From the IMG/VR virus record IMGVR_UViG_2778261453_000020: DNA of 10,710 nt; one strand, given 5' to 3'. The notes under the pieces are model-generated. The model was not told the origin of the DNA. It worked only from the letters and a program-made list of their open reading frames with translations, and did not search any database. The DNA comes from a virus (Duplodnaviria > Heunggongvirae > Uroviricota > Caudoviricetes). Below, one piece after another: positions 3,804 to 10,710 of this stretch (position 1 is the first letter of the stretch; each line of letters opens with the position of its first letter). A program made the translations under genes and the position numbers.

Positions 3804-3930
3804 GCAAAAACCTCGTTTTGAGGGGGTGTAACTTTTCGTGTAACTTTTTTGAAAAGCAAAATTTTCTACGAATGAGACGGGGGGCGGTGTCCAGGGCGAT
3901 CGCCTTTCCGGCCGGAACACTCCCCCCCTG
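3804..3930 (-). promoter_or_regulatory. Candidate packaging site (cos/pac-like): GC-rich dyad plus two GTAAC repeats immediately upstream of terS
   Basis: 3877-3929 is an extended imperfect palindrome (ACGGGGGGCGGTGT ... ACACTCCCCCCC) enclosing the perfect palindromes GGCGATCGCC (3895-3904) and CCGGCCGG (3908-3915). Two further GTAAC copies sit 12 bp apart at 3828 and 3840, between the dyad and the terS ATG. The functional assignment is inference. Confidence 0.3.
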
Positions 3931-4092
3931 TCATTGCTCACCGAGTAACGAGATCAGGCCTTCAACTTCATCGCTCAGCTTGTTTATTCGTGTCTCAAGC
4001 TCTGCGATCTTTTCCATTAATGGCGCTATCGTGTCTCTTGTTTCCTCGCCAATGGCTTTAATGATGCTTGCCTCGCGTTCTGTGATAGCCAT
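3931..4092 (-). CDS. Small predicted helical protein, 53 aa
   Basis: Hand translation MAITEREASIIKAIGEETRDTIAPLMEKIAELETRINKLSDEVEGLISLLGEQ*. AGGA lies 6 nt upstream of the ATG, and the ATG is 2 nt after the stop of the upstream ORF. Not in the supplied track. Confidence 0.4.
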   Translation of the reverse strand: MAITEREASIIKAIGEETRDTIAPLMEKIAELETRINKLSDEVEGLISLLGEQ

Positions 4093-4094
4093 TG

Positions 4095-4289
4095 TTATTC
4101 CTCACCCGTTGCAATGCCCAGGCGTTCGCGTAACAGCACGCGAGCAAGATGGCCTACTGTTGGCGTGGCGGCTCTGCCGTATATACCAGCTTCATTCATC
4201 CGGCGAATAACATCGAATTGAAGTTTTTTAAGCTCGTTTAGGATCTCGTGATCAATCATCACGGTAGCGCTTTGCTTTATCTGTTCCAC
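4095..4289 (-). CDS. Small hypothetical protein (64 aa), possible ribbon-helix-helix-like regulator
   Basis: GTG start with AGGAGG 7 nt upstream. Sequence ...SATVMIDHEILNELKKLQFDVIRRMNEAG...TVGHLARVLLRERLG reads as beta-strand plus two helices; the fold assignment is a guess. Confidence 0.45.
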   Translation of the reverse strand: MEQIKQSATVMIDHEILNELKKLQFDVIRRMNEAGIYGRAATPTVGHLARVLLRERLGIATGEE

Positions 4290-7598: not shown

Positions 7599-7762
7599 GT
7601 GAAAGGCTCCCAGATGAATTATAAGGAGTCTCGCTACTACGCTGCTAAACGGGGTGGCGAGACGTAACAGGGTTAGCAGACTGGTCATCTGGAAACCAGC
7701 GAGCGCAAAGGCTCCCCCGTTACGCCCCGCCATAATGCGGGTATGGGTAGGTTTACGGACAC

Positions 7763-7884
7763 AAAAAAACCGCTTATCGGATGTGGGCGGCTGTCCGCCA
7801 GATGTATTCAGGCTGCTAAACCCGGTCGCCATGTGGGCGACGGGGGAAGCATACAGCCCCGTGATAATTTTTTGCAAGCGGTTT
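7763..7884 (-). ncRNA. Candidate structured RNA (multi-stem, cloverleaf-like) ending in a U7 tract, between the two Icd-like genes
   Basis: On the minus strand, AAAAACCGCUU (7884-7874) can pair with AAGCGGUUUUU (7775-7765). This encloses hairpins GGGG/CCCC, GUCGCC-CACAU-GGCGAC and GGCGG-ACAG-CCGCC. Folds were judged by eye only. Confidence 0.25.
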
Positions 7885-8082
7885 TTACGCATGATGTGAC
7901 CCCTGACGAATACGGGCGGCGAATACAGCAACACAACCTGACGGGCAACGGTTACGCGCTTCGCGTTCCGTCCAGGCGGTTACGTGGATGATTTGAGATT
8001 CTCCGGCACTCAGGGCCAGAAAACGCCACACAAAGGCCGTTTGTGTGTGTACAAGGTGTGGTATATGATTTACGGCAACCAT
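7885..8082 (-). CDS. Icd-like small protein, 65 aa
   Basis: MVAVNHIPHLVHTQTAFVWRFLALSAGESQIIHVTAWTEREARNRCPSGCVAVFAARIRQGSHHA*, with AGGAG 5 nt upstream of the ATG. The track shows this as the 3' end of a 288-aa ORF, which I reject. Confidence 0.5.
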   Translation of the reverse strand: MVAVNHIPHLVHTQTAFVWRFLALSAGESQIIHVTAWTEREARNRCPSGCVAVFAARIRQGSHHA

Positions 8083-8170
8083 AACGGCTCCTAGTTTACG
8101 TTGTTGGTTAGACGCCCCGTATGTGTTCCCAGCACTGCGGGGCGTTGATTTTTGTGTAATGGCAAGTACA

Positions 8171-8219
8171 ATGGTAATTACCATGTAGGTATAGTAATGA
8201 AGGGTAATTACCATGTCAA
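8171..8219 (-). promoter_or_regulatory. Sigma70-like promoter (TTGACA-17-TACTAT) for the icd/replication operon with two palindromic operators
   Basis: Minus-strand -35 TTGACA (8219-8214), 17-nt spacer, -10 TACTAT (8196-8191). Perfect palindrome GGTAATTACC at 8203-8212 sits in the spacer. ATGGTAATTACCAT at 8171-8184 sits at about +1 to +14. Confidence 0.5.
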
Positions 8220-8386
8220 CACCATTAGAAAAACGTTCGCCTCCATACCAAATGCGATTACCGGAAGACTTCAGAGCGCAGCTAGAAGAAGCAGCTAAGG
8301 CCGATGGCGACACATCTTTAGCCACTTGGATTAAACGCGTTCTCCGCAAAGAATTACAGCAACGCGGCATAGAACCCAAAGGATAA
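8213..8386 (+). CDS. Ribbon-helix-helix (Arc/MetJ-like) DNA-binding protein, 57 aa; candidate repressor
   Basis: Hand translation MSTPLEKRSPPYQMRLPEDFRAQLEEAAKADGDTSLATWIKRVLRKELQQRGIEPKG*. YQMRLPEDFRAQLEEAAKADG...SLATWIKRVL fits the beta-strand/helix/helix pattern of Arc-type repressors. It is divergent from the operator-bearing promoter. Not in the supplied track; its own promoter was not identified. Confidence 0.55.
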   Translation: MSTPLEKRSPPYQMRLPEDFRAQLEEAAKADGDTSLATWIKRVLRKELQQRGIEPKG

Positions 8387-8443
8387 AAACTATCAGCGCC
8401 GTGGTGTGAGGTATTACGGCGCATTGCTATGCAGGACAACACA

Positions 8444-8617
8444 ATGACCGATAAAGAATTGACCAAAACATTATCACCGGCACGGAAAAGACGGCGCAGA
8501 AAGATAGAGCATGAATCAGAAAGATTCGCGCCATGTGCTTTTGCCCTTGAGCAATTCCTTAAAGAGTATAGGGAAAAGCGCTCATTGCAGGTATGGCAAC
8601 GAACTGAACCAGACTGA
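8444..8617 (+). CDS. Possible small basic protein with arginine-rich motif, 57 aa
   Basis: In-frame part of track ORF 8429-8617; AGGA lies 7 nt upstream of the ATG at 8444. Contains ARKRRRRK. It sits between the RHH gene and the terminator at 8712-8739. Coding status is uncertain. Confidence 0.25.
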   Translation: MTDKELTKTLSPARKRRRRKIEHESERFAPCAFALEQFLKEYREKRSLQVWQRTEPD

Positions 8618-8711
8618 TTGCATTGCCCACCAGCCTGATAGCGGCTATCATCCCCGTGCTTATTTTTGGGATCACATACACATAAGGCGCAGCGGGTTAA
8701 TTGTTCAGAAA

Positions 8712-8739
8712 GGCGGCTCCATATCGGGGCCGCTTTTTT
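8712..8739 (+). terminator. Rho-independent terminator
   Basis: GCGGCUCC-AUAUC-GGGGCCGC (8-bp stem with one G-U pair) followed by U6 at 8734-8739. The reverse-strand hairpin has a mismatch and a poor U-tract. Confidence 0.65.
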
Positions 8740-8765
8740 CGTGTTTGTCATATCTGTGATACCCG

Positions 8766-8972
8766 TTAAGCAGCCGTTCCGCGTGCTTCCTGTTCGCGTT
8801 CTTTCTGCCAGGCCAACACATCATCCTCATACCATCCGCGACGGCGTAAACCAACGCGAAAACCCTGCGGAAATTCTCCGGCGTTGATCATGCTTTGCAG
8901 CGTGCTGTCTGCCTTGATGTGGATAATTTTTTTTACTTCCTGGCGAAAGATAATTTTTCTGATTGCTTCCAT
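8766..8972 (-). CDS. alpA: AlpA-family (phage Vis/AlpA-type) DNA-binding regulator, 68 aa
   Basis: ...KIIHIKADSTLQSMINAGEFPQGFRVGLRRRGWYEDDVLAWQKERE... matches the AlpA helix-turn-helix pattern. It lies next to a P4-type integrase, as is usual for such islands. Confidence 0.7.
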   Translation of the reverse strand: MEAIRKIIFRQEVKKIIHIKADSTLQSMINAGEFPQGFRVGLRRRGWYEDDVLAWQKEREQEARGTAA

Positions 8973-9468: not shown

Positions 9469-10710
9469 CTACACGGCTCGGATACCCCTTTTACCACTGG
9501 CGAGGGTTACGCCCGTCGCCGCAGCCTCGACAAATTCGCCCCACCAGCGCATCAGCACGATGCGTTTTTCTATGTAGTTGCTCCGGTTGTATGCCCGTCT
9601 AACTTCGTTGGTGTCGACGTGGGCAAGTGCCGCCTCTATTACGTCCGGCTCGAATCCTTCCTCGTTCGCTGCTGTGCTGAATATGGCGCGTAATCCATGA
9701 GACACCAGCACGCCAGCAAATCCCATACGCCGCAATGCTGCGTTAGCTGTCTGGCTGTTCATCGGCTGCTGTGGGTCTTTCAGGCTTGGGAAAACGTAAT
9801 TGCGGTGGTGGCTGATTGGTTTCATGGCCTCCAGCACCGCCATAGCCTGACCGGAAAGCGGGATAACGTGATCCCTGCGCATCTTCATGCGTCCGGCAGG
9901 TATCGTCCATTGCTTCGCGTCCAGGTTGATTTCATCCCACCGCGTTGATGACGCTTCGGCGGGACGGGTTACGGTCAGTAACTGCCATTCAATCAGTAAT
10001 CTGGTCTGCCGTTCTGTTGCCGATACTGATAAAGCCTGCATAAGCTCCGGCAGCTGTTCGGGGCGGATTGTTGGCATATGTTTTTTTACAGGTGAGGGAA
10101 ACGCCTTACGCACATTCATAGCCGGATTGGCATCAATCAGCCCACTGTTGGCGGCGTAATCCATTACCTCATTAACGCGCTGTAAAACCCGCTTGAGTGT
10201 TTCCAGGTTGCCGCGCTCCTTGATGGGTGTAAGCACCTCAACGAATCTTCGGGCGGTGAGGGTATCTATTGGCGTGTTGCCGATGAACGGGAATACATAT
10301 TTATCCAGCGAACGCCAGATGTCTTTAATCGTGTTGGGGGCCAGATTCTGGCTGATTTTCACCTGGTACCATGCCGCCGCCACATTTTCGAACGTGTTCC
10401 CTTGTCTTCGGGCCTCTGTCTCTCTTTTTTGCCTCTCGTGGTCCTGCGGGTCAGTTCCGGCACGAATTAACGCCCTGTACTCGCTACGGCGTTTTCTGGC
10501 ATCAGCCAGGGAAACATCTTCAAGCGATCCAAAACTCAGCAATATTCTTTTTTTGTCCGATGGTCGGTAGTAGGAAAATCTCCAGAGTTTTGATCCAGAC
10601 GGTTTGACCAGGAGAAAAAGCCCTCCGCCGTCCTGCAGGGTGTACTCCTTTTGCGCTGGTCTGGCTGCTTTGATCTGCACTGTGGTTAATGGGTGTGTTT
10701 TTCTCGCCAT
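9469..10710 (-). CDS. P4-type tyrosine integrase, 413 aa
   Basis: N-terminal ...GLFLLVKPSGSKLWRFSYYRP... arm-binding-like domain. Catalytic-core motifs: R in ...TVTRPAEAS..., HGLRAIF (H-x-x-R), and ...ALAHVDTNEVRRAYNRSNYIEKR with the likely catalytic Tyr. The ATG is the final base of the window, so the promoter and attachment site are outside it. Confidence 0.85.
   Translation of the reverse strand: MARKTHPLTTVQIKAARPAQKEYTLQDGGGLFLLVKPSGSKLWRFSYYRPSDKKRILLSFGSLEDVSLADARKRRSEYRALIRAGTDPQDHERQKRETEARRQGNTFENVAAAWYQVKISQNLAPNTIKDIWRSLDKYVFPFIGNTPIDTLTARRFVEVLTPIKERGNLETLKRVLQRVNEVMDYAANSGLIDANPAMNVRKAFPSPVKKHMPTIRPEQLPELMQALSVSATERQTRLLIEWQLLTVTRPAEASSTRWDEINLDAKQWTIPAGRMKMRRDHVIPLSGQAMAVLEAMKPISHHRNYVFPSLKDPQQPMNSQTANAALRRMGFAGVLVSHGLRAIFSTAANEEGFEPDVIEAALAHVDTNEVRRAYNRSNYIEKRIVLMRWWGEFVEAAATGVTLASGKRGIRAV

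Follow-up and report, generated by a model that had tools for sequence, protein, structure and literature searches.

A predicted Arc-type repressor and its paired palindromic operators, a putative exchangeable cassette on the early promoter of an EcCICFT073-type PICI

Judged by its gene order and its near-identical island context, the window (by which we mean the whole stretch of 10,710 nucleotides analysed here) is a PICI of the EcCICFT073 type. It carries the gene set of this type (int, an alpA-like gene, icd-like genes, DUF4222, a RepA-type helicase, SSB, TerS and a capsid-family gene). The assignment is drawn from a gene order common to the window and EcCICFT073, the model Gram-negative PICI, and from a 99% identical island in E. 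coli O39:NM that adjoins tRNA-Pro/yejM. On the minus strand, a P4-type integrase (9469-10710) comes first and is followed by a small ORF and by an alpA-like HTH gene (8766-8972; Pfam Phage_AlpA E 0.0035, with a PHROG match to excisionase/regulator), after which come two Icd-like genes, DUF4222, the RepA-type helicase, SSB, a small-terminase-like gene and the capsid-family gene. The first of the two, icd-like gene 1 (7885-8082, minus strand; NCBIfam phage_ICD_like E 5e-18), heads the leftward operon. Next after the capsid-family gene lies yejO, a host autotransporter gene, whose C-terminal part (276-1910) is found on the plus strand at the far end of the island, together with an IS-transposase fragment (25-291). 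Induction by a helper phage and high-frequency transfer have been demonstrated by experiment for EcCICFT073 only (PMC6092414).

Against the direction of the island's main operons, the plus strand holds an ORF encoding a protein of 57 amino acids (8213-8386), which from its conservation is a genuine gene and which we predict to encode a repressor. We found 93 homologues of the protein, 64-98% identical and nearly all 56-58 aa long, in Enterobacterales, Pasteurellaceae, Aeromonas, Oceanimonas and Gilliamella. The gene is under purifying selection, with a pN/pS of 0.01-0.3 against 19 homologous genes, and when it is compared with its counterpart at locus L073 the third codon position takes 24 of the 25 nucleotide differences. 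Among 5,426 complete E. coli genomes, the Arc-like cassette to which it belongs is found at a coverage of 80% or more in at least 454, O157:H7 included (98.8% identity). The protein family is narrow, as it comprises 38 clusters at E <=0.001 among 1.84 billion representatives, and in a phage genome collection only 4 of 50,697 records match, all of them weak or satellite-like. This near-absence from phage genomes led us to discard the idea that helper phages share the repressor.

In the near-identical RefSeq records that we inspected, O157:H7 included, the gene is left unannotated and an antisense 'Icd-like' pseudogene stands in its place. The competing reading behind such records is that the plus-strand ORF is spurious and that the real product comes from a long minus-strand frame (8751-7885), which is open for 288 codons, in phase with icd-like gene 1 and endorsed by the PGAP annotation. 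Yet the plus frame is about 8-fold more constrained (pN 0.008 versus 0.064 in the comparison with L073), and stop codons interrupt the minus frame in 6 of 19 homologous regions, so that we find this reading scarcely credible. The minus frame tends to stay open because the wobble positions are common to both frames, and its openness over 7885-8751 is probably an artefact of these shared positions. A long form of it, made by read-through from alpA, could be imagined by analogy with P4 eta. The frame is antisense to the repressor gene and to the small gene downstream of it, ORF2, and the RefSeq pseudogene covers its upstream part.

That the fold of the 57-aa protein is Arc-like and of the ribbon-helix-helix (RHH) type, as the initial annotation had proposed, is supported by the agreement of Pfam Arc on the homologues, PHROG 228, hhalign, AF2 and Foldseek. 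The single 57-aa sequence scores under the cut-offs of Pfam and NCBIfam (for Pfam Arc, 14.3 bits and E 0.038 against a curated cut-off of 20.4 bits). Pfam Arc does match 10 of 32 homologues, with a best E of 2.5e-4, the PHROG 228 profile ('Arc-like repressor') aligns with residues 6-55 (E 1.5e-6), and hhalign to P22 Arc gives an E of 0.0014 and aligns RSPQYQMRLPEEF with KMPQFNLRWPREV. Some of the homologues are named 'Arc family DNA-binding protein' by NCBI and some are labelled as HicB family. In the AF2 model (pLDDT 76) the N-terminus is extended and two helices span residues 18-31 and 36-50; the model is that of a monomer, a dimeric beta-sheet being beyond what such a model can show. Used as a Foldseek query, it retrieves almost exclusively RHH proteins (AmrZ, Arc, CopG, ParG, NikR and antitoxin N-domains), with AmrZ first at 37% identity and an rmsd of 1.3, and with every E-value above 1. 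Such values are usual for a domain of 45 residues. The model and its matches show the strand, helix, helix arrangement of ~45 residues that is the trait of the RHH superfamily. A profile search of PDB sequences returned only designed helical-repeat proteins, which we set aside as false positives arising from the two amphipathic helices, with AmrZ at E 1.2. A dimer holding a two-stranded antiparallel sheet in the major groove is indirectly supported by the two-fold symmetry of the predicted operators described below, whose sequence follows the residues of the predicted strand.

Several of the Foldseek matches being antitoxin N-domains, and some homologues bearing the HicB family name, one could argue for a type II toxin-antitoxin pair in which the protein would be the RHH antitoxin and ORF2 would be the toxin. 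ORF2 (8444-8617, plus strand; frame open from 8429; phrog_21027) encodes a small protein of 57-62 aa with a basic N-terminus, its central part being conserved also at the DNA level. It is identical in EcCICFT073, and related islands annotate it as hypothetical. The 57 residues of the putative antitoxin, however, amount to the bare domain with no toxin-binding tail, and no downstream partner is conserved across loci: ORF2 is found only in E. coli islands, is missing downstream in most genera, and gives way at loci L074 and L062 to a convergent alpA-like gene placed directly next to the RHH gene. Moreover, ORF2 stays unchanged and in place where the RHH cassette is swapped for another. A conserved adjacent toxin and a toxin-binding extension, the traits of type II systems, are absent across the loci, and we regard the antitoxin reading as very improbable. 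The repressor-ORF2 unit has a predicted terminator at 8707-8739 on the plus strand, which is weak on the minus strand, where alpA ends. Directly after the repressor stop lies another conserved plus-strand hairpin (8396-8422, GCGCCGT...ACGGCGC, -16.9 kcal/mol) that has no T-run and that coincides with the right border of the exchanged cassette.

Upstream of the predicted repressor gene, GGTAATTACC occurs in exactly two copies in the 10,710 bases, at 8173-8182 and 8203-8212, when about 0.01 exact copies would be expected by chance for a given 10-mer; the other matches in the window all need two mismatches. Both copies lie within a 17-nt direct repeat that is 94% identical, and copy 1 forms the centre of a longer perfect palindrome of 14 bp, ATGGTAATTACCAT (8171-8184), which we take as predicted operator 1, the second copy (8203-8212) being predicted operator 2. 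A promoter scan places a leftward promoter, P_L, at 8191-8219 on the minus strand (TTGACA 8219-8214, a 17-nt spacer and TACTAT 8196-8191), a consensus match located upstream of the icd-like/C4/replication operon with a predicted start at ~8184. The same scan places a rightward promoter for the repressor gene, P_R, at 8145-8172 on the plus strand (TTGATT 8145-8150, a 16-nt spacer and TACAAT 8167-8172), also a consensus match, with a predicted start at ~8179, within operator 1. Operator 2 sits inside the P_L spacer, abuts the repressor ATG and, in the repressor mRNA, separates this ATG from the SD, while operator 1 spans ~+1 to +14 of P_L and ~-9 to +5 of P_R, so that it covers the -10/+1 region of P_R as well as the start region of P_L. 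The initial annotation had rightly recognized the two palindromes, 30 bp apart, in the P_L spacer and at its start, and the divergent ORF on the opposite strand, but had set the ATG merely adjacent to the -35, which in fact overlaps codons 1-3 of the ORF (ATGTCAA). The operator repeat occurs a third time, in degenerate form, at 8158-8174 (AATGGCAAGTACAATGG, 76% identical to the 17-nt unit), where it overlaps the P_R -10; at this position some homologous loci have a perfect TGTAATTACA.

The geometry of this predicted double promoter is conserved. Our one-genome-per-species scan yielded 66 loci, with 47 distinct upstream regions, and overall ~60 related islands were compared. In 45 of the 47 regions, the strand opposite to the first codons has a perfect TTGACA, followed by a spacer of 16-18 nt that contains a palindrome and, in most loci, by a good -10-like hexamer. 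Most loci have a perfect palindrome at -10 relative to the start codon, with a sequence that goes with the class of the protein, and a second, class-specific palindrome lies 30-35 bp upstream of operator 2, at the P_L start in the loci that we read. In most class-1 loci a -10 (TACAAT, TAAAAT or TATAAT) abuts operator 1. One Photorhabdus copy retains TGTCAA, yet its first in-frame ATG is two codons downstream, for which reason we believe that the hexamer has probably been kept as a promoter element.

More telling is that the operators covary with the protein. Following up the check that the initial annotation had suggested, namely covariation of palindrome and RHH sequence across homologous islands, we obtained a positive answer: ~40 distinct loci fall in three main protein/palindrome classes, in which the palindrome tracks the predicted beta-strand. 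RSP[QP][YF]QMRL is paired with GGTAATTACC in 24 of 28 distinct loci, KTDQYQ[IL]RL with TGTAATTACA in all nine, and RSPQFPMRL with GGTATATACC in three out of four. Operator and predicted DNA-contacting strand thus vary in step, which is the trait of a repressor-operator immunity cassette. The classes recur across several genera, and different classes can reside in one genome, as in Yersinia similis Y228 and Photorhabdus heterorhabditis SF41. Apart from distant integrases, a tblastn search with the window's other proteins found almost nothing at the 66 loci of other species, and gene context there was read from ORFs and DNA motifs instead. These data bear on the possibility that the palindromes are bound by some other factor (AlpA, the integrase or a host protein) and have nothing to do with the ORF. 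Our analysis found no evidence in support of this possibility; AlpA, for its part, is known as an activator of the island that binds DNA (PMC6092414). Against it, the class of the palindrome goes with the RHH beta-strand across genera in which the flanking genes have mostly diverged beyond detection by protein searches, and the protein and its repeats are exchanged jointly between islands that keep the same alpA. We consider another binding factor quite improbable.

This joint exchange is seen among E. coli islands that share their flanks, with the start and leader of the icd-like gene to the left and ORF2 to the right, where other small proteins and other repeats occupy the interval. Locus L004 has an Arc-like protein, 52% identical, with GGTATACA, and proteins of the YlcI/YnfO type are found at L002, L003, L073 and in EcCICFT073 with GGTGTTnAACACC, GGTGTCAGCCAC, a further repeat set (L073) or GGTGTGGCCCAC. 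The YlcI/YnfO type gives a weak, in-register hhalign match to the Arc-like family (E 0.007) and an NCBIfam YlcI_YnfO_N match at E 0.0014. Read directly, L002, L003 and EcCICFT073 show on the icd-ward strand a TTGACG, a spacer of 17-18 nt with one repeat, a -10, and a repeat at ~+1, which tells us that the P_L geometry is kept while the protein-site pair changes. We propose from these comparisons that protein and operators would travel as a specificity cassette exchanged between islands, like phage immunity regions.

Many RHH proteins are simple autoregulators, and a more modest reading of the locus is that the protein regulates only the operon formed by its own gene and ORF2, the overlap with the icd/replication promoter having no regulatory role. 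The location of operator 1 over the P_R start and that of operator 2 between SD and ATG agree with it. What makes it unlikely in our eyes is that 45 of the 47 loci have operator 2 within the P_L spacer, that three unrelated cassettes of the YlcI/YnfO type, whose genes start 60-70 bp further away, still keep their repeats in the P_L spacer and at +1, and that ORF2 is missing downstream in most genera.

A further layer of control may lie next to the switch. Immediately to its left, on the repressor's strand, we identified a candidate antisense RNA of ~75 nt (8076-8152), located downstream of a putative -10 (TATGAT, 8064-8069). In its predicted fold a 5' helix is followed by stem-loop 1, whose loop is anti-SD, and by an intrinsic terminator made up of the hairpin 8112-8145 and its T-run. 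Icd-like gene 1 has its SD (8092-8088) and its AUG (8082-8080) in the stretch complementary to the candidate, which would be a new antisense RNA directed at the ribosome site of this gene. We had considered the hairpin 8112-8145 as a 5' leader structure of the icd mRNA, and dropped the idea in favor of a plus-strand terminator because of its G-U bias and its T-run: across 31 distinct homologues, G-U pairs make up 75 of 449 when it is folded as plus strand and 13 of 383 as minus strand, and the stem is followed by 6.0 T in 10 on the plus strand against 1.4 in 10 on the minus strand. The plus-strand fold is the more stable one in 27 of these 31. A -10-like TANNNT is found at a fixed upstream offset in 54 of 60 distinct loci, with a background of 1.7 loci per offset, and falls within codons 4-7 of whatever gene comes first in the leftward direction. 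In an alignment of the candidate, 93.5% of cells are paired, versus 35-48% in slid controls, and among 39 sequences compensatory changes affect 14 of 20 pairs, values that none of 500 shuffles reaches. Its MFE is -33.6 kcal/mol (z -4.8), compared with -23.6 when the opposite strand is folded. Searching 40 sources with a covariance model, we recovered the candidate on the strand of the repressor gene in 30, EcCICFT073 among them, and no Rfam family matches the RNA or its hairpin. The T-run of its terminator doubles as the -35 of P_R. Within the coding sequence of icd-like gene 1, a minus-strand, terminator-like hairpin with a T-run (8027-8047) lies over the conserved FVWRF motif and overlaps the putative -35 of the antisense-RNA promoter.

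The leftward operon also contains a C4-type immunity RNA (7650-7737, minus strand; Rfam RF01695, clan CL00128, 71.6 bits against a cut-off of 45) and an a1/b1 target region (7805-7854, minus strand; RF03163, 45.5 bits, just below the cut-off of 46.7), both located between the two Icd-like genes in a layout like that of P1 immI or P4 CI RNA. When Rfam was run on 18 sampled loci of other genera, C4 or isrK was found in only 2, so this layer is not universal. RNAs of the C4/isrK type have been reported for Gram-negative PICIs already (PMC10111431), and this, with the C4 RNA in the window itself, contradicts the statement of the initial annotation that their control is described as depending on AlpA only.

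Taking all these elements together, our reading of the locus, to which we would give a probability of about 0.75, is that an EcCICFT073-type PICI encodes an Arc-type RHH repressor acting through two palindromes on P_L, regulating its own synthesis and exchanged as a cassette. From the promoter geometry and the covariation we infer binding, repression, autoregulation and a role in silencing the island, which could proceed as follows. Dimers of the repressor would bind both palindromes, and the occupation of operator 2 in the P_L spacer and of operator 1 at the P_L start would block transcription of the icd-like/C4-RNA/replication operon. As operator 1 covers the -10/+1 of the repressor's own promoter, autoregulation is implied, and the protein would limit its own synthesis. 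Since P_L and P_R face each other and overlap, RNA polymerase could use only one of them at a time. The island would in this way stay silent until a helper phage switches on alpA. The predicted action would be local, the window holding no further sites with 0-1 mismatch to GGTAATTACC. The initial annotation had also seen in this arrangement the geometry of a repressor-operator switch, an idea that the conserved promoter layout and the covariation sustain, while it had missed the position of operator 1 on P_R and the antisense-RNA candidate.

How such a repressor would fit with AlpA deserves consideration. AlpA is the activator switched on by the helper phage, and the presence of a global repressor has been called 'unclear' (PMC6092414). 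Over-expression of AlpA alone induces EcCICFT073 (PMC6092414), which means either that the repressor is not an absolute block or that AlpA acts above it. Also, the C4 RNA lies in the P_L transcript, and full repression of P_L would require another promoter for this RNA. The hairpin 8707-8739 is a good terminator on the plus strand only and alpA is convergent with the repressor unit, which makes AlpA-driven read-through a testable idea, though no more than that. Going further, one may speculate that the RHH cassette, the antisense RNA and the C4 RNA together make up the missing master-repression system of Gram-negative PICIs, with cassette variants defining hetero-immune groups, and with AlpA-driven convergent transcription silencing the repressor gene and reading into the replication operon; we offer this broader scheme as tentative and rather doubtful.

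The locus has parallels in several well-known systems. In the immI region of P22, the Arc and Mnt repressors act on the overlapping Pant and Pmnt promoters, together with the sar antisense RNA. The island resembles it in having a small RHH repressor of ~53-57 aa, operators between the -35 and -10 and at the start of the controlled promoter, an overlapping and opposed promoter that drives the regulator, and an antisense RNA as an added layer, and the beta-strand motif PQFNLRWP of P22 Arc resembles PPYQMRLP in the 57-aa protein. The differences are that Arc has a single operator of 21 bp, whereas here two separate palindromes 30 bp apart would apparently serve one protein, and that the target of P22 Arc is the antirepressor gene, whereas that of the satellite island would be the icd-like/replication operon. 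In addition, the sequence resembles that of P22 Arc only marginally (E 0.0014 by hhalign, and a Pfam score below the cut-off). Some plasmids place their replication operon under dual control, in which CopG, an RHH protein, and the antisense RNAII (pMV158), or CopB and CopA (R1), act together. The island is like CopG/RNAII and CopB/CopA in that a predicted repressor of the replication-operon promoter is joined by a candidate antisense RNA, short and structured, which would target the site where translation of the first gene begins, and unlike pMV158 in that CopG is co-transcribed with repB from the promoter that CopG represses.

With P1 immI and P4 CI RNA, the island shares a putative protein-controlled promoter followed by RNA immunity, with a C4-family RNA, an a1/b1 target and Icd-like genes. 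P1 immI comprises a C1-controlled promoter, C4 RNA, icd and ant, and in the island the predicted promoter regulator is an Arc-like RHH protein instead of C1; P4, unlike the island, has no protein repressor at the promoter step. A further parallel is the YlcI/YnfO-type gene of EcCICFT073 with its GGTGTGGCCCAC repeats, which occupies the same site between alpA/ORF2 and the icd-like operon, with the same flanks and hairpin and with repeats in the P_L spacer and at +1. It differs in protein family and in repeat, and its start lies ~65 bp from P_L, not overlapping the -35. We found no functional study of this gene in the literature searched. The 'putative repressor' of EcCIMP1 was examined as a relative and rejected, as it is PerC/ANR-like and unrelated to the 57-aa protein. 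In Gram-positive PICIs (SaPIs), the gene of a master repressor (Stl/Rpr) is divergent from the excision/replication operon of the phage satellite (PMC6092414), a disposition which the 57-aa gene shares; Stl proteins, though, are larger HTH proteins that are inactivated by binding a helper-phage protein, while induction of Gram-negative PICIs goes through AlpA.

The type of module described here is a textbook one. What is new relative to the literature searched is an exchangeable and largely unannotated cassette on the early promoter of a Gram-negative PICI, and the antisense-RNA candidate layered upon it. That literature, whose coverage is thin for subscription journals, contains no functional description of an RHH, Arc or YlcI repressor in PICIs, and names such genes only as accessory or toxin-antitoxin genes. 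The founding paper left it unclear whether Gram-negative PICIs have a global repressor and placed induction on AlpA alone (PMC6092414). These islands disseminate genes for virulence and defence, and efforts are under way to turn them into delivery vehicles. With a conserved cassette of repressor and operators on their main early promoter, the question of a global repressor would become concrete and testable, the more so as the model island EcCICFT073 has a cassette too, of a different specificity. Such cassettes would explain how several islands coexist in one cell without cross-talk, and would supply orthogonal pairs of small repressors and operators for synthetic PICIs. The data also expose a systematic annotation error, the antisense pseudogene having replaced the gene in the records inspected.

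Two loci show cassettes or modules in series. In L073 (E. coli 2013C-4081, 361-2002), one island has two cassettes in tandem, the YlcI/YnfO-type gene adjoining the icd-like gene and, further on, an Arc-like gene with two GGTAATTACC sites and the hairpin, which suggests recombination between cassettes. In Photorhabdus (L037-L040), the whole module, consisting of the antisense-RNA candidate, the predicted operators and the RHH gene, is present twice, 1.2 kb apart (~2630-2940 and ~3850-4160), and each copy is followed by a convergent pair of ORFs that look by sequence like HigA/HigB.
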